Assembly (NCBI GenBank): GCA_000934665.2
Contig: JYFJ02004068.1
Coordinates: forward strand, 1-35,128
DNA from: Catajapyx aquilonaris
Taxonomy: Eukaryota
DNA length: 35,128 nucleotides
Reading direction: 5' to 3'
Made by a program: the position numbers and the translations under genes. This document shows, piece after piece, positions 12,955-34,433 of the stretch (its first letter is position 1; every line of letters starts with the position of its first letter). The notes under the pieces were generated by a model. The model saw nothing but the letters and a program-made list of their open reading frames with translations, was not told the origin of the DNA and did no database searches.

Positions 12955-13099
12955 GTACTATCGGGTTCAAATACATTTGGCCACTTTATCCTGGTCTTGA
13001 AGCAACCCTTCGCACAGACCCCCACGAAGGAGGTGTGAGTGAAGGGTTTCTTCAAGACCAGTATAAAGTGGCCAAAAGTATTTGAACCCGCGATAATAC
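12955..13099. repeat. ~145-bp near-perfect palindrome (hairpin-type non-autonomous element)
   Basis: CGGGTTCAAATACATTTGGCCACTTTATCCTGGTCTTGAAG...CTTCAAGACCAGTATAAAGTGGCCAAAAGTATTTGAACCCG: the arms are reverse complements around a short central loop. Confidence 0.85.
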
Positions 13100-13526
13100 A
13101 TTGTAGCAGAGGTCTTGGCCATCAGTTTGGCTGCGGTGGATACCATTCTTCAGCCACACATTCCCCTCAGTGAGGTCTCCGCTCGTTGGGTACAGTACCG
13201 CTCAGCCTCACAGTTCGACACTCAATAAGCTGAGCTGTACCAGGCCATCTTGATTTTTTTTTTCCGCGACAAGGATGACTTTTTCGCACGGTTAGTGTTA
13301 CCAAACGAAACTTTCAGCACGTTCCTATTCCCCAATATGAAAAACAACTTTATGGAAGGGTCGATGGATGCGTCTCATAAGTGATTGCTGCTGTGGAGGA
13401 GGTGTTGGACTGTTGGGTGGGGTTCCAGAAACCATTTTTTGAAGGACCTGATAGAAAAATAGAAAAAACGCTGGAAAAAGCGTATCAACATGCAAGAATA
13501 TTACGTTGAAAAATAAAATATCCCTG

Positions 13527-13838
13527 TGTGACCGAGCGGTTTGGTTCAATGGTGGTGAGATAGAAATATAGGGCAACTGAGATCGTATTCAAGTCCTCTT
13601 TAATGCGGAAAACAAAATAGTAAGTGAAATGGAAGTAAAGGATAGTGTGGGGTAGGTAGGGAGTGACCTCCTCCTACGGATATGCTCCGATAGGAATCAG
13701 CCTCAATTCGGAGACAGAGTGAACTTATATACATATCATAACCCTGAGTATGATGGGAAAGAGACATGTTAGTTGATAACAGCACTCAAGGGAAGAGAAG
13801 TCCATCTAGCGATGAAAGTTGAAAGTTCACCGGTCACA
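13527..13838 (-). repeat. 3' LTR
   Basis: TG...CA ends with an 8-bp terminal inverted repeat. Minus-strand TATATAA at 13725-13731 and ATTAAA at 13599-13604. Confidence 0.95.
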
Positions 13839-13994
13839 CACCTCACGGCGAAGCTAACGGACACCCATAAAGAAGTTAAGGTCCGTCAGTTCAGGTGGTC
13901 ATCTTTTCCAGCTAGAAGTTAACGGTCCCGACATCAAAGAGGTCGTCAAATATGTCCGGTGGTCGATGATGATGAAGTCATTTGTTGGTTGATT

Positions 13995-14564
13995 CTATGG
14001 TGTAGTCGTATCAGGATCAGCAGGAGGCGTCGTAGCAGCGTCGGTACTCGTGTTGGTCCCCTCCAGGAAAAGCGGCATAGGCAGCTTCTCAAACATACGA
14101 AAAGGCAGGCAAAAGGGATGAGGCACAGGCGAGCCTTCTTCATTCCAAACTGCGACGCCTGAGAACAGCAGACTGGAGCAGTTCATGATGCACCCGTAGG
14201 CGGCGTATATGTCTGATGCAATGACGATGGGGACGATCAAATCCGTCACGACAAGGAAAGGCCTCCATACTTCTACAGCTCCCAGTTGAATCGGCAGGGC
14301 CACGCGTCCCAACGGAACAATGTTCAGTTGGTTTGGCAGGCTGATGTGGCGTCGCACTGGCAGCAGGGGAGGTCGTAACGGGACTGGTAGAGCCATCCAC
14401 ACTCGTTGGTCGATGGATGAAGACACAGCTCCTCCATCCAGCAGTGCGGTCCACTCCATTCCGTGTATTGATGTATGGATGGTGGCAGAGGCGATGACGT
14501 AAGGGCCCCTCTTAGGTTCGGTGGACTCTGTGGACTGTGCTGGTGGTGGTAATGCTTCCGCCAT
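13995..14564 (-). CDS. Retropepsin-like aspartic protease homologue with non-canonical active site (189 aa from ATG at 14564)
   Basis: WTALLDGGAVSSSID matches the ALLD(T/S)GA motif with T/S replaced by G. PLGRVALPIQLG...FLVVTDLIVPIVIASDIY matches the C-terminal ILGxDFL region. The ATG is in ACCATGG Kozak context and the frame is uninterrupted. Confidence 0.8.
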   Translation of the reverse strand: MAEALPPPAQSTESTEPKRGPYVIASATIHTSIHGMEWTALLDGGAVSSSIDQRVWMALPVPLRPPLLPVRRHISLPNQLNIVPLGRVALPIQLGAVEVWRPFLVVTDLIVPIVIASDIYAAYGCIMNCSSLLFSGVAVWNEEGSPVPHPFCLPFRMFEKLPMPLFLEGTNTSTDAATTPPADPDTTTP

Positions 14565-14696
14565 GGTGTCTGTTGATCCTGGAGTCGGTTCGCCTTCCAA
14601 TGACTAGATAAACATGAAACAATGATAAGTCAATATTTAGGTGAGCAGGAAAACCAAGAATGAGGTCGGGCAGGTTGGGCACGGCCGGTTTTATGC

Positions 14697-15554
14697 TCAA
14701 GGAAACGCAATGCATCTTGGATCCGGTGCGCGTTTCGAAGATACTGAACAAACGTCACTTTTAGCTTGGCTCATCGAATGGCGAGATCTGGGGTTTATTT
14801 CCCGAGGTCCAGCCGCCCCCATATAACACCACTCTTCCAGGGTAAAAGCAAGAGCTGGTAAAGGGGGGTGGGGTCCAATTGTCCGATGATTTAACAAACC
14901 GCCAATGGGGTTAATGGCGATATTAGATCGTCGCCTTTTGACACTTTTGGAAATCACCAGTGGGATACACGTCATGTGTAAGGAGGGAAAGGAAAGGTTC
15001 AAAACAAAAAAAGGTCCACTGTAGGTGATCCGAAATAGGTCACGATGCTCTAAAAGGATGTCGTACCGTGACTCAATACTCCTGTCCGAGACAAATCGAA
15101 TTTGTCTGAGGTCGTCAGTCTCCTGTCCCTTCATATGACGATGAATTTCCAACAAAAGAAAGATCACTCTGTTCTCACACTTAACTTCCGGTAGACACGG
15201 CGCGTGGTATAGGGCCGCGACACAACAGTTGTATGCCTGTATAGCACAACCCGGCCGCAGGTCCTCCCGCGACTCGTAAGTATCTTCAGACGTGACCACT
15301 GGACTCCGTCGACAGCTCAGAGGTTGTATTGCCTGTATAGCACAACTTGTCTGCTCGTAAGTTTCTTCAGATGCGGCCAATGGGCTCCATGGACAGCTCA
15401 GAGGTTGTATCGCCTGTATAGCACAACTTGTCTGCTCATAAGTCATCTGTATGGGGGTCCGTCGTCCGGTTGATAACACCGACATGGCTAGTCGACTCCA
15501 AAGGCGGTTCAGAGGTTGTATTGCCTGTATAGCACAACTTGTCTGCACATTCAT
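14697..15554 (-). CDS. 285-aa ORF of the LTR element: N-terminal QTSCAIQAIQPL repeats and a putative winged-helix/LOTUS-like domain
   Basis: The frame stays open through 3-4 repeats of unequal but frame-preserving spacing. The domain guess is a by-eye pattern only. Confidence 0.5.
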   Translation of the reverse strand: MNVQTSCAIQAIQPLNRLWSRLAMSVLSTGRRTPIQMTYEQTSCAIQAIQPLSCPWSPLAASEETYEQTSCAIQAIQPLSCRRSPVVTSEDTYESREDLRPGCAIQAYNCCVAALYHAPCLPEVKCENRVIFLLLEIHRHMKGQETDDLRQIRFVSDRSIESRYDILLEHRDLFRITYSGPFFVLNLSFPSLHMTCIPLVISKSVKRRRSNIAINPIGGLLNHRTIGPHPPLPALAFTLEEWCYMGAAGPREINPRSRHSMSQAKSDVCSVSSKRAPDPRCIAFP

Positions 15555-15696
15555 TAGTCACTCGCACAGAGGTCTGTGTACGTACGTGAGCAGCGATCCT
15601 CCCTACGGATAGCGGGCGGCAATTCGCCAGGTCCCTTCGTATCAGGGACGTCGCTACCATAGAGGTGAATATACCGCAGAGGAAAGAATAATAAAG

Positions 15697-15714
15697 ATCC
15701 CACTTCTGACACCA
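15697..15714 (-). promoter_or_regulatory. Primer-binding site complementary to the tRNA-Leu 3' end
   Basis: Minus strand TGGTGTCAGAAGTGGGAT, 7 nt inside the 5' LTR. It is the complement of ...ATCCCACTTCTGACACCA, the 3' end plus CCA of metazoan tRNA-Leu (recalled sequence). Confidence 0.9.
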
Positions 15715-15721
15715 CTTTTTA

Positions 15722-16033
15722 TGTGACCGAGCGGTTTGGTTCAATGGTGGTGAGATAGAAATATAGGGCAACTGAGATCGTATTCAAGTCCTCTTTAATG
15801 CGGAAAACAAAATAGTAAGTGAAATGGAAGTAAAGGATAGTGTGGGGTAGGTAGGGAGTGACCTCCTCCTACGGATATGCTCCGATAGGAATCAGCCTCA
15901 ATTCGGAGACAGAGTGAACTTATATACATATCATAACCCTGAGTATGATGGGAAAGAGACATGTTAGTTGATAACAGCACTCAAGGGAAGAGAAGTCCAT
16001 CTAGCGATGAAAGTTGAAAGTTCACCGGTCACA
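15722..16033 (-). repeat. 5' LTR
   Basis: Identical to 13527-13838; the ORF track gives the same 61-aa translation in both. Followed on the minus strand by the PBS. Confidence 0.95.
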
Positions 16034-17794
16034 CCTGTTTGCCTACGTCTTGTTTTTCAAGCAAAAGTCGCGAACTTTCAGAAAGCCCCTCGTATACATG
16101 CGCAAAATTAGTGTCCTTGGCATTTCCCCTTCGAATCAAATGAAACTTAGAACGACTTGCGTTTGTAGTCTCCGTAATGCCGGCCATCTCTTACGAAGCA
16201 CCATAGCCGTAATCGGCCATCATTGGAACATCCCATCTGTCATAGTACCGTATATTACTTTTACTTCTTGGATATCTGGAATATCTAATTATAACTTATT
16301 ATATTATATATTACCAGTATATTTAACGTAAATTCCGCAGATTTTTTTCTCATGGCGAAAATTGTTTACGTATAAGTCCAGATGGTCCGGATCTATGCAA
16401 GTCGAGGCTTTCTGTATTTACTGATACAGTATGTATACCGCACTATTACACAAGATGTTCAAATGATCGGAGCACCTCTCTAAGATGTAGGTTCCTTGCA
16501 ATATTACAAATACCAAGTACAGTACAAGTAGAACATGAGCCGTCCAAAAGTCAAATGTCTGAAATCCATGCTATAGTAGCGTTTTGATTTTGAGTTTGGA
16601 CTCTTCAATATATTACCCTATAGTTAATTTTAGCTATTTCGGCTTCCTTTCGGAGATAATCCACATCAGGTTATGCAAGCAGGTAATGGGCGTCATCCTG
16701 TGCATCAGGCGATCAAAGTAGCAAGGGGGGTTGTAAGTCAGCAAAACCTACAAAATTACTCCTGTTAGACTATGTTTGTAACCTTTAAGATGCCAATATC
16801 TCCTTAATGAGATCGGAGGCGTCAAATAAGTTATATCATCCTAGAAATGAGCAAGGAACCAACATACGAGATGAGCTTTGCAAGCTTTGCAACACCCTGT
16901 ACAGAACTTGGCAATAAAGTTTGTCAGAAATGCAGTGGTGTTTCACTAACGCAGAAAGTAATCAAAGAGAAAATGTATACAAAAATATAAATGATTATTA
17001 TCATTGTAATTTGTGCAATATTTACGCAAGTTTCAGAGCAGATAATGAGAATGTTGAGTGAATTGACCAAAAGCCATTCTTACCCATGACACAAAAACCA
17101 TACTTATACGAAGTATTTCATTCAGGGCGCCTTAACTTCGCATCAGCCCCTGACATCTCGAACTTTGCTGACTATACGCTCCTATAGACACTTAAGAAAC
17201 AATAAGCCCGTTCAAACCTGCTGTCAACAGGAATTGATTGAGCTGGAAATGGCAGTGACGTTGGTGCAAGAATATTGAGGAAGAGTGAAATATGTTCAGG
17301 GACATGATTCATTATTTTTATTACACTTTCCCACTTGTCCTTTTGGAGGACGCTGATGATAAGATGAAACCAATCAAGCTATTCCTATACTTGGATCAGG
17401 GGCAGAAAAGGTGTGCATAATGTGACCTAATCCCCTTCACTATATCCTATCTGGAGGTACTACCCATTATGCCTCTACTACTGCTAAGTGCCGATGCAAG
17501 GACAACTTTCCACATTCGGATCTCGTGTGTTACAGAATTTATTTATGGTCTACACAGCTAGTGTATAAGTGAAATACGTGTTACGAGTTAAGACAGTAGC
17601 CCGCAGTCCCTCTTAAGCAACGGTATCATACCACTTATTCCAAAACACCTTTGTCCAATGACACTTCCCACTTTATTGTGAGACAATAATGGCACAACAA
17701 TGATTATGCACAGATTCAGGTGGCCATGCTCTACAGGCAATGTTGCACTGTGCCGCTGAAAAATATTTTTTAAAGTGTGCTACAGAGTCAAATA

Positions 17795-21283: not shown

Positions 21284-21326
21284 CTAGCGGTTACATTCGC
21301 CGAGTGTCCCCTATATAGGGGTCGGC
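21284..21326 (-). mobile_element. Helitron-like 3' terminus (hairpin followed by CTAG|T)
   Basis: Minus strand GCCGACCCCTATATAGGGGACACTCGGC hairpin, 11-nt spacer, then CTAG followed by T. Confidence 0.5.
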
Positions 21327-21332
21327 GTCCTA

Positions 21333-22142
21333 ATGTTCTCATTGGTTGTTTGTCACTATTTTTGTGGATATTTTAAAACTAAATTTTTTTTCTCGTTTCT
21401 TATTGGGAAAATGTTCAGAAAATGCGTTAAAAATTCTTCTCAGGTCTCAGGAGGATATTTATTACGGAAGCACCTCCGGAATTTTCCTGGAAGGACCGTG
21501 GGAAACCACAGAAAACCACGGTCAGAGTTCCCGGCCCCGAGATTTCATCCCAGGACCTCCCGATTAGCAGTTGGACACCATGTCCCCTCCTCCAAACTTC
21601 GAAGGCTCACGAGATGTTCTGCGGCAAGGGAATTGAGGTGCCAAACCGGAAACAATATATTAAGCAAGGTCGATTCAAGCGATGGCAATACTTCAAGAAA
21701 AGTTCAGCTTGCAAGTAAAAGTGCGACTCATCAAGTTGATCACAGCCCTACGGTTACGTGTGACGTAGATGGAGGAACACACCGAGCTGAACTGAATTCC
21801 AGCACTGCGCAGAATATTGCACCTTTACGTCCAAAGAAAATTCAAGTGTTCCAGTGTGAAAAGCGCGGCAAATGTGTGAAGTCTAGTTCATCCTTCAAGT
21901 ACCACATACAACGTGCATGTCCTATGCTCGGCGCCGTGGTCGAAATGAATCGTAAGCACAAATGCGAGACATGCGGAGAGGGCTTCAGAAGCAAGACGCA
22001 GCTGGCGGATCATTCCCGGGTGCACTATAAGACATTGAAGTGCGAGATATGTGAGAAACGATACTTCTTAAAACACAACTTCATCAGGCATCTCCAGACT
22101 CACCTGGATTGGCCGACGCACACTCGGCGGAAGAGACAGTAA
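21333..22142 (+). CDS. C2H2 zinc-finger coding segment (exon or pseudogene fragment); true 5' boundary probably an acceptor near 21443-21450
   Basis: Two canonical fingers, CETCGEGFRSKTQLADHSRVH and CEICEKRYFLKHNFIRHLQTH, preceded by a damaged finger CEKRGK...H (second Cys replaced by Arg). Fingers span 21855-22103. Confidence 0.7.
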   Translation: MFSLVVCHYFCGYFKTKFFFSFLIGKMFRKCVKNSSQVSGGYLLRKHLRNFPGRTVGNHRKPRSEFPAPRFHPRTSRLAVGHHVPSSKLRRLTRCSAARELRCQTGNNILSKVDSSDGNTSRKVQLASKSATHQVDHSPTVTCDVDGGTHRAELNSSTAQNIAPLRPKKIQVFQCEKRGKCVKSSSSFKYHIQRACPMLGAVVEMNRKHKCETCGEGFRSKTQLADHSRVHYKTLKCEICEKRYFLKHNFIRHLQTHLDWPTHTRRKRQ

Positions 22143-29266: not shown

Positions 29267-32200
29267 CTAATTATGGAAGCACTCCTGGTATACAATGTTT
29301 TTGGTTTTTCCTTTTGGAGCATACACGAATAAGTTGCTGGGGGTTCCTACTCATGAACATTCAACATATAGTTGTCCATGCGAAAAACTTGCATCCTCTA
29401 ATTGTAAACCTGCAACTGCCAATGTCTGCCCTTGGGCTTTGTTTATGGACATTGCAAAACTGAGTGTAACTGGGAATTCGAGCCTTTTAAACGGAACAGG
29501 CAAGTCTGTGTCTGATGGAATGAGAGGGATTCCTGGCAATAGAACCTTTTCCTCTTCTCCACATCCTGTGAGGATTTTGGCCTCAATCACATGTGGCATC
29601 ATTCTCATGACTGCCAGTCTAGTCCCATTACATAGTTGAGGTGGATCTAAATTGCACAGCACCATGATGGGTGCTCCTGCTTTTAGCTCCAGTTTGTGCG
29701 GAGGAAGACCAGGAGGCTGTAGTGAATTTAGGAATTCCGTGGGATAATGAATAGCTTGTGATTCATCAGGAACTGCGTCAATAAACCAGTAGGCTACACA
29801 TGAGAACTACCAGGGAAAGATTTCAACATCTGTGAATTAATTTCGTTTACAGCGTTGTTTTTTGGCGGAAGTATGGCTCTTTTGCAAATCCACTTGTGAT
29901 CCAGGTAATAGTGGAGGTGTGAAAATACCTTTTCTTTCAACTCATCCACTTATTTGACAAAAGTGGAAAAGAGCTTCATGTCCAAGTTTCCGTCTCCATC
30001 AAGTTTAATTTTGCCCTCGCCAAGTTGTAAAAGCCTCTGCACAAATTGTCCTGCAGCATTCTGGTCTCCAAAGAGTTGGATTCTCATGTTTGTCTTCAGG
30101 GTAAATCGTATAGCTTGAGGCCACAGACAGGATGACTTAATGCATGCTCTGAGTAGATCAGCTCTGGTTCCTTTAGGGATGACTGGAAGTGTCTGTCGGA
30201 AATCTCCAGAGAGGAGAAGGGTGACACCTCCCAAAGAATTCTTGGAACACCTTAGATCTCGAAGAGTCCTATCCAAAGCCTCCAAAGCCGCCTTATGGGC
30301 CATCGTGCACTCATCCCAAACAATAAGCTGACATTCTTTTAGTACCTCTGCTGCTCCATATTCATTGGTAATGTTGCAGACCGGTGTGTCTCGGGTGGCA
30401 AAGTTGAATGGGAGCTTAAAAGCAGCATGTGCTGTCCTTCCACGAGGAAGTAGAGTTGCAGCAATTCCAGATAATGCTACAGCCAAGCCAATTATTCTCT
30501 GCTGTCGTACTTTAGCGAGTAAAAGTTTCGTAAGAAAGGTTTTTCTAGTACCTCCAGGGGCATCAAAGAGAAATATGCCCCCTTTTTTGCTAAGTACATG
30601 ATGAATTATGGTGTCATAGGCATCTTTTTGATCCAGTAGTAGCTTTGGCTCGTTGACATATGTTGTTAGCGCTTCAATGTTGTAGGAGGTCTCCCTAAAC
30701 ATCTCAGGACTAAATTGGTCAGAATGTGTTTGGTTAGGCTTTGGCAGGCCGTAGGCAGGCAGATCCTTTCCTCCAATGGAAATTACCTTGTCTTCTAGAG
30801 CAATTAAGGCCATGTTATAAATATCATTGTTGAAGTCAATATGGATGGCAGGAAATTGCAATTGAACTTGATGGTTGTAGTCTTCAGCAAGAGCATCCTT
30901 GTACTTGTGCCATAAGACAACTGGATTGCTTGCATGGCAGGTTTCCATTACCACAGCAAACAGCGATCGTAGATGTCTAGGCAACTGAGCCACGGAAGCT
31001 TCAGACAAAGCATCCCACTGGGCATCATCTTCCAGCAATCCACGTAGGTAGCAAGCCTCTCTGTAAGTTCCAAAAACCTCTCCATCTACAGTTCTGAGGT
31101 CTTGGAATGAATTAGGTCCTTGATGTAGGAGGAGGCGCAGATGGAAATACTCATGTTGATTGGGATGCACTGTGCAGACTCTCCCTAAGGTATCGTCAAA
31201 CTTAACATGTGGGTGACCTTCAACATTAGTTCCTCTCTTTGTTGGGCACCACTTATTTTTTTCCAAGTGTAGTAAGATGGAAGTAGGTAGTAAAGCAACG
31301 TCTGGGCAAATGGATCATCCTGGCACAGGTTGAAGAATGCAGTTAAAGTGGTGTCTTTGGGAGCCAGTGCTTGCTGAATTGCGTTATGCTCAGTGAAGTA
31401 GACTCTCTGGCCGTTTTCCAAATGGACTGCAAGTTGTTGGATGGCTGGATGGCGCTCATGAATTGGAAAGGCGAAGATTCTCCAAAGCCTCACTGCTGCT
31501 TATGTAGTGGCCTTGTTGGTACTGCATGACTTCATCGTGTACATTTTGTTGTTGAAGAGCAAAAGCAGCAGCATATGAGCCCTTATTCACATATTTGCAC
31601 ACATATTTTATGGACTTAACGGAATTGCAATATTCCACATTTATATGGGCATTAAAAGCTTTCGTCAGCAAGGGACTGTACTGTACTATCCATTGGTTGT
31701 CCACTTCATGTTTACCAACCTTTGCTGTGAATCCACCATCCTGAGGGCTTCTTCTTCTGTAGGAAGGGGATCCGTCATCTCCTGTCTGGGTTTCGTTTAG
31801 AAATTTCCTGGGATATCTTTTGGTACACTTATCGCCTGCCATGCAAGGAGAGTTGGGATTGAGTTTTCCACATCGTCCATGCACCATTGTGGCCTTCAGA
31901 ATGTCGTAGAGGCATTTGTCTAGTGAGGGATCAGGGAGTTCAGCTGTAATAATGGAGTCAATCTGATTGGAATGAATTTTAGTAGAAAGCCAGATCAGAA
32001 TATAGGCATGTGGTAGTCCTCTCTTCTGCCACTCAATAGTGTGTACATGTCACATCGAACAGGTCCAAAAACTTGACCCTTCTTTATAAGGGCCATCAAT
32101 TTAAGTAATTTAAGGTGGAAAACCCTTGCTGAAATATCCGGTCTATCTTTAGGTGCTTGACCTGGAAGAAGCTCTTCTACAATTTCGTTCCACTTACAGT

Positions 32201-33746
32201 TAGAGTTGCAAGTGAAGGTAATGAATAAGTCAGGCCGTCCATAGTGTCTAACCTATGTCATTGCATCTTGTGTACGCTCATTCATATATCTTGGGCCGCC
32301 ATTGTAACTTGATGGAAGAATGCATAGTTGTCCTAGTTGTCCTGCTGCAGTGTCATTGTTGATGGCATCGCGCAAGTGAATATGTGAATTTGATCTCAGA
32401 TCTTTTTGATAGGTCCGAATGTAACAAAGCCTGTCCGGCTCGATCTTGGCATACATGTCCACAGCGTATTGGTGGAAAAGATTTTGGCTTCGATGTAGGT
32501 GATTTAAGGAACCATGACGGAGCATGACGCGATAAGAATAGAAATCCATTCAGGAAACAGTTTTGGAATTTCCTCCCCGTTGTGGAATGTCGAAGTGGTA
32601 CCCATCCTCACCATTTACAAAAAGAAGAGGATACTGGAGAGCATCATATGATCTGTGGGTCTCGCTAATTTGCTTGATACCTTTTGCGTTGTCTCTGTAT
32701 TGGATGACGATGTCTCTCTTCGCATGGGGCTGGCCAACCATGATTACAGCTACCTCATTGCAAGATGGTGCATTGTCTTGCATTCTCTCCTGATGGCCTA
32801 TTGTCAGCATTAATGACTACTTGCAAATCAAGGGTTGGATTACATTCTAAGGCATGCTTGAAGCTCCTGACGTAGTTGTTGTCGGCATGGATCATGTCTT
32901 GAAGTTTCATAATTAGTTCAAGTCTTGTTCCTGGCGAAATCGAGTTGCGTATCTCTGCCTGTGTTTGTAGATCCCCAACAAAGTAAACCTGCAGAAATTG
33001 GGCCTGTTCGTTTGGAAGAGGCTGTAGAGTTCCAATGCGGTGATATACCTGACCTTGGACCTTAAATGTAGGCATAAATCCAACCTGGGTACTAACGATC
33101 TTGGCCCCAAATGATGTCATTTGAAAGGCAGAGTTGTACTTTCTGACATTTGATAAAAAGTGCCTTGATTCTTTGGCTGTGCCAGTGAGGAGTAATCTGA
33201 GAGGCTCAGGCGGATCAGGAGGCAAATGTAACTTTATGTTGCCATTAGAACAGCACATTCCGCTGGTTCGTTGCTCCATGTCTTAGCCCCGCAGCATTGT
33301 CATACATGGATCATCGCACCAATGGCAATGGAATGATAAGAGGCGTAGTCGCTTTCTGGGTCATAGTTAAATGCCCATTGATTCCACTGTCGATATGCAT
33401 TAATTCTTACCCTGCCTTGCCTGGCTGCTTGAAGGTGTAGATGGGACTGTCGCTCTTCTGAAGGTTCTTGCTGCCTCTGTCCAGCTTGTCTGGCTGCTTG
33501 AAGGTGTAGACGGGACTGTCGCTCTTCTGAAGGTTCTTGCTGCCTCTGTCCAGCTTGTCTGGCTGCTTGAAGGTGTAGACGAGACTGTCGCTCTTCTGAA
33601 GGTTCTTGCTGCCTCTGTCCAGCTTGTCTGGCTGCTTGAAGGTGTAGATGGGACTCTCGCTCTGCTGAAGTTTCTTGCTGCCTTGTACTTCATTTGCGTT
33701 TGGCAGCGGGAGATTGCCCAAAAGTGCAACACTTCTTTGGAGGCAT
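29267..33746 (-). pseudogene. Helitron Rep/PIF1-helicase (RepHel), multiple frameshifts and stops
   Basis: In order: MPPKK start; CCSNG Zn motif; YGRPDLFITFTCN; EWQKRGLPHAYIL (HUH, second His replaced by Tyr); KYVCKYVNKG (Y2); DAPGGTRKTF (Walker A, Gly replaced by Arg); [37 protein letters not shown]. No AP-endonuclease domain seen. Confidence 0.95.
33416..33682 (-). repeat. 69-bp tandem repeat, about 3.8 copies, encoding 23-aa STPR-like repeats of RepHel
   Basis: Units start at 33421, 33490, 33559 and 33628. In the RepHel frame they read QQEPSEERQSRLHLQAARQAGQR. Confidence 0.9.
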
Positions 33747-34433
33747 CAAGAAACAGAAAGGGGACACTCGATATCTCCGAAAATGCAATTCTGAAACTTC
33801 TCACTTTTTGAGTTTCCTTGGAAATGCTTACAAACAAAAACAGTATAATTAACAGTCCCCATTCTTGTCTTCAAACTCTCACGAATTACTCTGTAATGAG
33901 GGCATCGCCATGGAAATTTGAAATGTGGTAATATTGCTAAAGAGTGCACGTGAGATGGCGTAATTGGCGGATGCGTTGAATAATTTACGGAGATGGGACG
34001 TGCATAAGGGCATTTCCATGGGATTGTTATTGATGTTGATATACAATATTGTTTCCCGAGTAGTGAGAAGATCCAGGAATATACGTGTTGTGGGTGTTAG
34101 GTTCATTTATGGAAGCTGAAACATGCGGCGTTAAATTCCTTGAAAAATGTAACCCCCAATATGCTAATATAAGGCGGTGTAGGGGCCTTCCCCTGGATTT
34201 CTATAAGGGACGAACAAACAAACTCACAAACATCCTTATTTATAGATATAGAGATTATGCAAAAACTATAAGGTCGTCAAGTCATCACCTAAAATTTGTA
34301 AGATGGTAAATTGATGAAAACCCAATGATAATGTGCTAGATTGATTAATGATGCATTCACCAATGAACCCCCCCCCCCCCTCCTTAGTGACTGACTTCAT
34401 GTAATGCATGACTAACAGTGTTAAGCCACTTAA

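Follow-up and report, generated by a model that had tools for sequence, protein, structure and literature searches.

A well-delimited, small and very young LTR element of an animal, present as a single copy and carrying only a protease-like reading frame, was found in the genome of Catajapyx aquilonaris (assembly GCA_000934665.2, contig JYFJ02004068.1, positions 1 to 35,128 of the forward strand; this whole stretch of 35,128 nt is called the window below). The frame is a stand-alone ORF of 189 amino acids on the minus strand (13995..14564), of which about residues 24-131 form a retropepsin-like domain. The reading that we favor, and to which we give roughly an even chance, is that the ORF is a catalytically impaired protease relic in a non-autonomous, Ty3/gypsy-like element. 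What lends the locus additional interest is the unevenness of the change, since the functional motifs are lost while the scaffold of the domain and the open frame are kept. When the sequence was read again, the ORF was found as the first-pass annotation had described it, including the quoted strings ALLDGGAVSSSI, PLGRVALPIQLG, FLVVTDL and VIASDIY.

The ORF sits in an LTR retrotransposon of 2,507 bp (13527-16033, minus strand). Its two LTRs, each 312 bp long, are 100% identical to each other; in element sense, the 3' LTR occupies 13527..13838 and the 5' LTR 15722..16033 (both minus strand), and they have TG...CA ends with a terminal inverted repeat. The target-site duplication CCTG is present on both sides of the element (13523..13526 and 16034..16037). 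TATATAA at position 108 and ATTAAA at position 235 of the LTR, in minus-strand sense, are consensus matches only. A primer-binding site (sense TGGTGTCAGAAGTGGGATC; 15696..15714, minus strand) lies 7 nt past the 5' LTR, and its first 18 nt coincide with the opening letters of a published probe that is complementary to tRNA-Leu(CAA) at its 3' end (PMC7997516). No tRNA gene was found in the window. The polypurine-like stretch directly upstream of the 3' LTR (GTGAGGTG; 13839..13846, minus strand) is weak, having six purines in eight positions, and makes an unconvincing polypurine tract.

Between the LTRs lies an inner region of 1,883 nt, composed of a frame of 285 codons, a 93-nt spacer that contains stops, the protease frame and a tail of 156 nt. 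No reverse transcriptase (RT), RNase H or integrase was found in its three sense frames. Because it has neither RT nor integrase, the element is non-autonomous and needs a helper, and the reliance on a helper that the first-pass annotation had taken for granted fits this result. No helper element was found in the window. A member of the same 90% cluster as the best protease match has the order PR-RT-RNase H; a Ty3/gypsy-type origin of the present element would fit, short of proof. Searches of viral contigs and of metagenome contigs found no close relative, and blastn of the element against a phage collection gave no match, as expected.

The DNA flanking the element (13121-13483 and 16025-16266) is a low-copy repeat, with a depth 3 to 10 times the unique level, several variant contigs and skipping joints; because both flanks are themselves repetitive, the element landed inside another repeat. 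Farther to the left is a MITE-like hairpin (12962-13090) with 62-nt arms, 89% complementary, and a 5-nt loop. This hairpin repeat is very high-copy, with a summed contig depth of about 59,000 against about 36 for the unique flank in the same runs. Other features of the window include a broken transposase of the Helitron/Helentron type spread over several frames (29950-33282, minus strand), in which a PIF1-like helicase (E-value = 1.4e-59) stands beside weak Rep and Helitron_like_N matches. Behind this remnant, at 33300-33870, lies a tandem repeat in which several frames stay open. An open frame at 21288-22142 (plus strand) ends in C2H2 zinc fingers (Pfam zf-C2H2, E-value = 3.4e-5) and may be a host-gene exon.

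The copy number and age of the element were examined by comparing the contigs of public sequencing runs with the region 13000-16600. Three runs of one sample, possibly the source of the assembly, were used. In all three, the stretch 13810-15346 is represented by a single contig without differences, and no other contig with at least 80% likeness to the inner region was found in the same sample. The depth of this stretch was 25.4, 21.2 and 18 in the three runs, versus 36.4, 28 and 26.4 on the unique right flank. In two of the three runs there is also an empty-site contig, with depths of 10.7 and 6.8, which joins 13522 to 16034 and thereby skips 2511 bases, that is, exactly the element plus one duplication. 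The depths of the filled and empty forms add up to about that of the flank (36.1 versus 36.4, and 24.8 versus 26.4). The simplest reading is that the element occurs as one copy whose insertion is polymorphic in the sample, and this fits the identity of its LTRs. With identical LTRs and an empty-site form still present, the element is young and has recently been mobile.

Parts of the LTR have variant contigs, 80-90% alike, elsewhere in the genome (for example, around 13747-13794), and these may come from solo LTRs or else belong to a related element, perhaps one of the helper family. A second sample of the organism, from another study and with no library type recorded (run X5), yielded one contig of 295 nt that matches 13928-14222 without a difference, and no other part of the element is represented there. 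This contig looks enriched, given that the high-copy repeat 13000-13120 reaches only a very low depth in the same run. No run is recorded as RNA; if the X5 library is RNA, the region 13928-14222 is transcribed, and we regard the 295-nt contig as a hint only.

The ORF begins in a strong Kozak-like context (GACACCATGGCGG), in agreement with the ACCATGG start of its own that had been claimed for it. It was also said not to be part of a polyprotein, and this is borne out: four in-frame stops, all within a gap of 93 nt (14604..14696, minus strand), separate it from the upstream 285-aa frame, which is in the same frame, so that as the DNA stands the protease ORF is not joined to any polyprotein. From stop to stop the protease frame comprises 202 codons. 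When the inner region of 1,883 nt was shuffled 2000 times with its dinucleotides preserved, a stop-free run of at least 202 codons appeared on the sense strand in 15 of the shuffles, and the frame is thus longer than chance gives. The protease domain aligns with its relatives over its full length without a frameshift. Translation of the ORF from a full-length RNA of the element would probably be inefficient, because 13 ATGs precede its start in the 1,157 nt that separate it from the 5' LTR, and one of the upstream frames overlaps the start. A splice-site scan for a message that would place the ORF near the cap gave only a single, weak donor-like site and, at 14603, an acceptor-like site rich in pyrimidines, which is no evidence for such a message.

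The upstream frame, ORF1 (285 aa; 14697..15554, minus strand), has no recognizable family. It showed no family in Pfam and no usable match in the Atlas, its language-model recognition score was low (1076), and no zinc-knuckle pattern was seen in it by eye; the identification of ORF1 as a recognizable Gag is thus unsupported by Pfam, by the Atlas and by the zinc-knuckle inspection. Three tandem copies of an 81-nt unit lie within it (15273..15545). A run of at least 286 open codons occurred in one of 2000 shuffles, so that ORF1 too is longer than expected by chance, although this repeat inflates the figure. A Gag-like frame that evolves fast or has decayed would be one explanation of ORF1, and an open frame driven by the repeat another.

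Sequence likeness between the protease ORF and known retropepsins is weak, and single searches by several routes were negative: a direct Pfam scan gave no family even at E-values up to 10, phmmer against PDB gave no match, and protein searches of a word index, run with the ORF alone for near and for longer lengths, gave none either. In a phmmer search of 1.84 billion representatives, nine matches were obtained at E-values of 1e-3 or better, the best being 3.8e-6 and the weakest 8e-4. The identity of the true matches to the ORF is 28-36%, and there is no close relative among the 1.84 billion representatives, the best identity being 36% over 78 aa. Seven of the nine matches fit retropepsin Pfam families at E-values of 0.01 or better, and four (P0001, P0004, P0008 and P0009) are above the curated Pfam cut-off; P0003 has no Pfam match, yet it aligns throughout with the ORF. 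One match, P0002, was rejected as a homologue, being a repetitive, low-complexity false match on the C-terminal tail. A profile search with the query and seven matches added 19 more proteins. The final alignment (A3) contains the query and 24 relatives; besides P0002, it leaves out P0007, a near-duplicate of P0005, and P0027 and P0029, which are short and have no reported identity.

The query scored 65.4 bits against a profile made from the 24 relatives only, within the range of 35 to 136 bits that the more distant relatives obtained in leave-one-out scoring. The profile of the query and seven matches recovered SASPase, whose structure is solved (E-value = 8e-20), the RVP domains of Ddi1 (1e-13 to 1e-6) and the Ty3 protease region (0.005), and HIV protease was matched as well. 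The language-model neighbors of the ORF are retropepsin clusters at 0.95. The ORF is thus a true homologue of the retropepsin domain, and its product is predicted to have the retropepsin fold. With the 25 sequences of A3, AlphaFold2 (AF2) gave a model whose mean pLDDT is 75, the block means for residues 31-130 being 82-97; from the single sequence the prediction was poor (pLDDT 35), and as the model leans on the alignment, the evidence from the fold depends partly on that from the sequence. In Foldseek the top matches were the RVP domains of Ddi1 (E-value = 2.6e-5, TM 0.70 by target), with HIV-1 protease next to them (TM 0.64). A homodimer prediction with two copies of residues 1-160, for which the tool ran without an alignment, scored 0.57, and one control 0.41, which speaks neither for nor against a dimer. 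The empty Pfam scan and the poor single-sequence fold are what could be said for a chance open frame whose likeness to a protease is spurious. That reading is hardly credible, as it is in effect refuted by the phmmer match of 3.8e-6 in so large a library, by the score against an independent profile and by the agreement of the fold search, and the language-model neighbors argue against it too.

Retropepsins are obligate dimers, and the threonine or serine that follows the catalytic Asp forms the 'fireman's grip' at the active site of the dimer. In the query the catalytic-loop motif reads D43-G44-G45 (codons GAT GGA GGA; 14430..14438, minus strand), followed by Ala. The replacement of T/S by Gly, which had been noticed from the sequence alone, is confirmed by A3, in which 22 of the 24 relatives have Thr (18) or Ser (4) at position 44. 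The complete D-[TS]-G, which the query lacks, is found in 21 of the 24. The altered ILG-type motif reported at the same time was likewise seen in the alignment: the G-x-D motif is A116-S117-D118 in the query (14211..14219, minus strand; I-A-S-D with the preceding residue), and all 24 relatives have Gly at position 116. A third deviation, absent from the first-pass annotation, concerns the flap, where the query has P77-N78-Q79 (14328..14336, minus strand) and the relatives A-D-G (A in 17, D in 17 and G in 21 of the 24). This position corresponds to pattern 3, the A-D/N-G type, of the clan AA survey (PMC2642776).

Fourteen positions are common to at least 70% of the relatives, and the query keeps six of them (L41, D43, G45, P60, G86 and D118), the lowest number among the 25 sequences (the relatives keep 8-14). 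At 12 functional-motif positions it averages a BLOSUM62 score of 1.15 against the relatives, again the lowest (relatives, 1.75-4.34), with a residual of z = -4.1 from the regression of the relatives; since the choice of motif positions drew on prior knowledge and the relatives alone supplied the consensus, this comparison leans against the query. At the other 94 positions of the domain its mean is 0.73, the ninth lowest of the 25, and the eight relatives that score below it there all keep the canonical D-[ST]-G. Because the changes sit at the functional motifs and the rest of the domain is family-like, the ORF looks, on its sequence, more like a pseudo-enzyme than like a product of even decay.

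The sole other D-G-G among the 24 relatives is in P0006, a protein from a contig of 1,880 bp. It lacks the Asp of G-x-D and has a motif score of 1.75, the second lowest, with 0.77 at the other positions; for these two reasons it looks degenerate too, and it may be a second case of a similar loss of motifs. P0006 continues into a pol-like stretch that is common to P0001 and P0003. A tree of the 25 protease domains was not resolved, with the query on a long branch and in no supported clade with P0006. In the survey of clan AA motifs (PMC2642776) the string 'DGG' is absent from the text, and a literature search for retrotransposon papers that mention DGG alongside DSG or DTG was negative, a result that does not show DGG to be unpublished.

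According to the relic reading, an internal deletion of a Ty3/gypsy-like LTR element would have removed RT, RNase H and integrase and left the protease domain, while the cis signals needed for copying by a helper are kept, namely the identical LTRs, the tRNA-Leu(CAA) primer-binding site and the target-site duplication. The domain still has the fold-defining pattern and the catalytic Asp, its fireman's grip, flap and G-x-D motifs having changed. As to the last of these motifs, changes of G86 in HIV-1 protease, the equivalent glycine, nearly abolish activity. The title of one of the Foldseek matches, PDB 3jw2, is that of a structure of the G86S mutant of HIV-1 protease, and a literature search for papers on G86A or G86S found none. 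As to the grip, T26A of HIV-1 protease is described in PMC11187873 as a dimer-dissociation mutation, the mutant being a monomer. The product of the ORF, if made, would most likely have little or no protease activity and dimerize poorly; by analogy with the HIV-1 enzyme, we infer that protease activity has been lost and that dimerization is weak. The ORF would then be a passenger, the transposition of the element itself having no need of its product, and it probably lacks a selected function. In this reading the element needs only its cis signals. The many ATGs ahead of the ORF speak for it, and there is no family for selection to act on, because the inner region is single-copy and no close relative was found among the representatives, viral contigs and metagenome contigs searched. 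Against it stand the frame that is open for 202 codons beyond chance, the conserved scaffold, the strong start context and, if the X5 library is RNA, the 295-nt contig. The main objection is that even, neutral decay severe enough to alter seven or eight of the most conserved positions would be expected to introduce stops and frameshifts as well.

The same observations are what a selected, non-catalytic, protease-like protein would account for. Such a product might be an inactive retropepsin subunit that acts on the machinery of the helper, for instance by pairing with the subunits of its protease and delaying or damping their activation, or it might be a scaffold of the particle. To the clustering of the changes at functional motifs in an otherwise kept scaffold, the frame open beyond chance and the strong start can be added the confident core of the fold model and the recent mobility of the element. 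On the other side, the window contains no helper protease, the sample has no sibling copy that could show constraint, 13 ATGs lie upstream of the ORF, and long selection at this locus is impossible because the copy is single and polymorphic. The side chain of the fireman's grip is lost as well, and since loss of its counterpart through T26A dissociates the HIV-1 dimer (PMC11187873), tight pairing with a partner is less likely. On this analogy a dominant-negative subunit would be somewhat disfavored, and we consider a selected non-catalytic protein, the reading of the first-pass annotation, on the whole rather unlikely. A narrower idea, a natural pseudo-protease made from its own start codon that interferes with the helper protease, or times it, through mixed dimers or occupation of substrate, appears very improbable. 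The domain does stand alone in a predicted fold and the motif changes are concentrated, and to this extent the first-pass annotation was right; ordinary decay, which it had named as the alternative, is the most likely single reading.

The protease might instead still be active with a non-canonical D-G-G loop, being either expressed to process Gag for the element itself or for its helper, or inherited recently from an autonomous lineage whose working protease has such motifs. The catalytic Asp, the Gly-Ala that follows, G86 and D118 are all kept, the ORF is intact, and P0006, which continues into a pol-like region, has D-G-G too. However, the three functional motifs deviate together in the query, P0006 is itself suspect for its missing Asp and its low motif score, and the two do not group with support in the tree. 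Neither an autonomous parent that is at least 80% alike in the sample, nor the string 'DGG' in the text of the clan AA survey (PMC2642776), nor a retrotransposon paper naming it beside DSG and DTG was found. We therefore regard an active enzyme as quite improbable, though less so than the interfering pseudo-protease, and retain the impaired relic as the preferred explanation of the ORF.

Genes derived from Gag or Env that poison related retroelements are familiar, and to our knowledge, within a limited search of the literature, no protease-derived gene of this kind has been described. If the ORF is made and acts on the protease of the helper, the element would be a hyper-parasite equipped with a weapon, or a brake, directed at its helper. 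In engineered trans-dominant subunits of HIV-1 protease, an inactive subunit joins an active one in a dimer that is thereby poisoned, and if the reading as a mixed dimer is true, the ORF would be their natural counterpart. The engineered subunits, however, were designed and dimerize well, whereas the query is changed at a position whose loss weakens the dimer of HIV-1 protease. No natural case of a trans-dominant protease subunit was found in the literature search.

With the retropepsins of Ty3/gypsy elements, SASPase/ASPRV1 and the RVP domain of Ddi1 (gag-asp_proteas, Asp_protease_2 and RVP_2; clan AA), the query shares the fold, as predicted, and the domain length, as well as the catalytic Asp-x-Gly-Ala loop, G86 and the Asp of G-x-D in register. 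It differs from the clan AA template (PMC2642776) in that DT/SG and ILG are altered and the flap is not kept. At the level of the whole element, the closest parallels come from plants. In wheat, RLG_WHAM and RLG_Sabrina_SA are non-autonomous Ty3/gypsy derivatives that keep GAG-protease, and Sabrina_NA9 is one that keeps a partial proteinase (PMC9744471); ATHILA elements with gag-protease only are common in Brassicaceae (bioRxiv 10.64898/2026.03.20.713144). Like these, the present element would have lost RT, RNase H and integrase by internal deletion, with the protease kept and mobility owed to a helper. The plant derivatives, however, are high-copy families of 6-9 kb with a recognizable Gag, whose proteinase is described with no word of altered motifs. 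The element of Catajapyx, in contrast, is an animal element of 2.5 kb, single-copy and without a recognizable Gag, in which the protease frame stands alone behind stops and is changed at three functional motifs.
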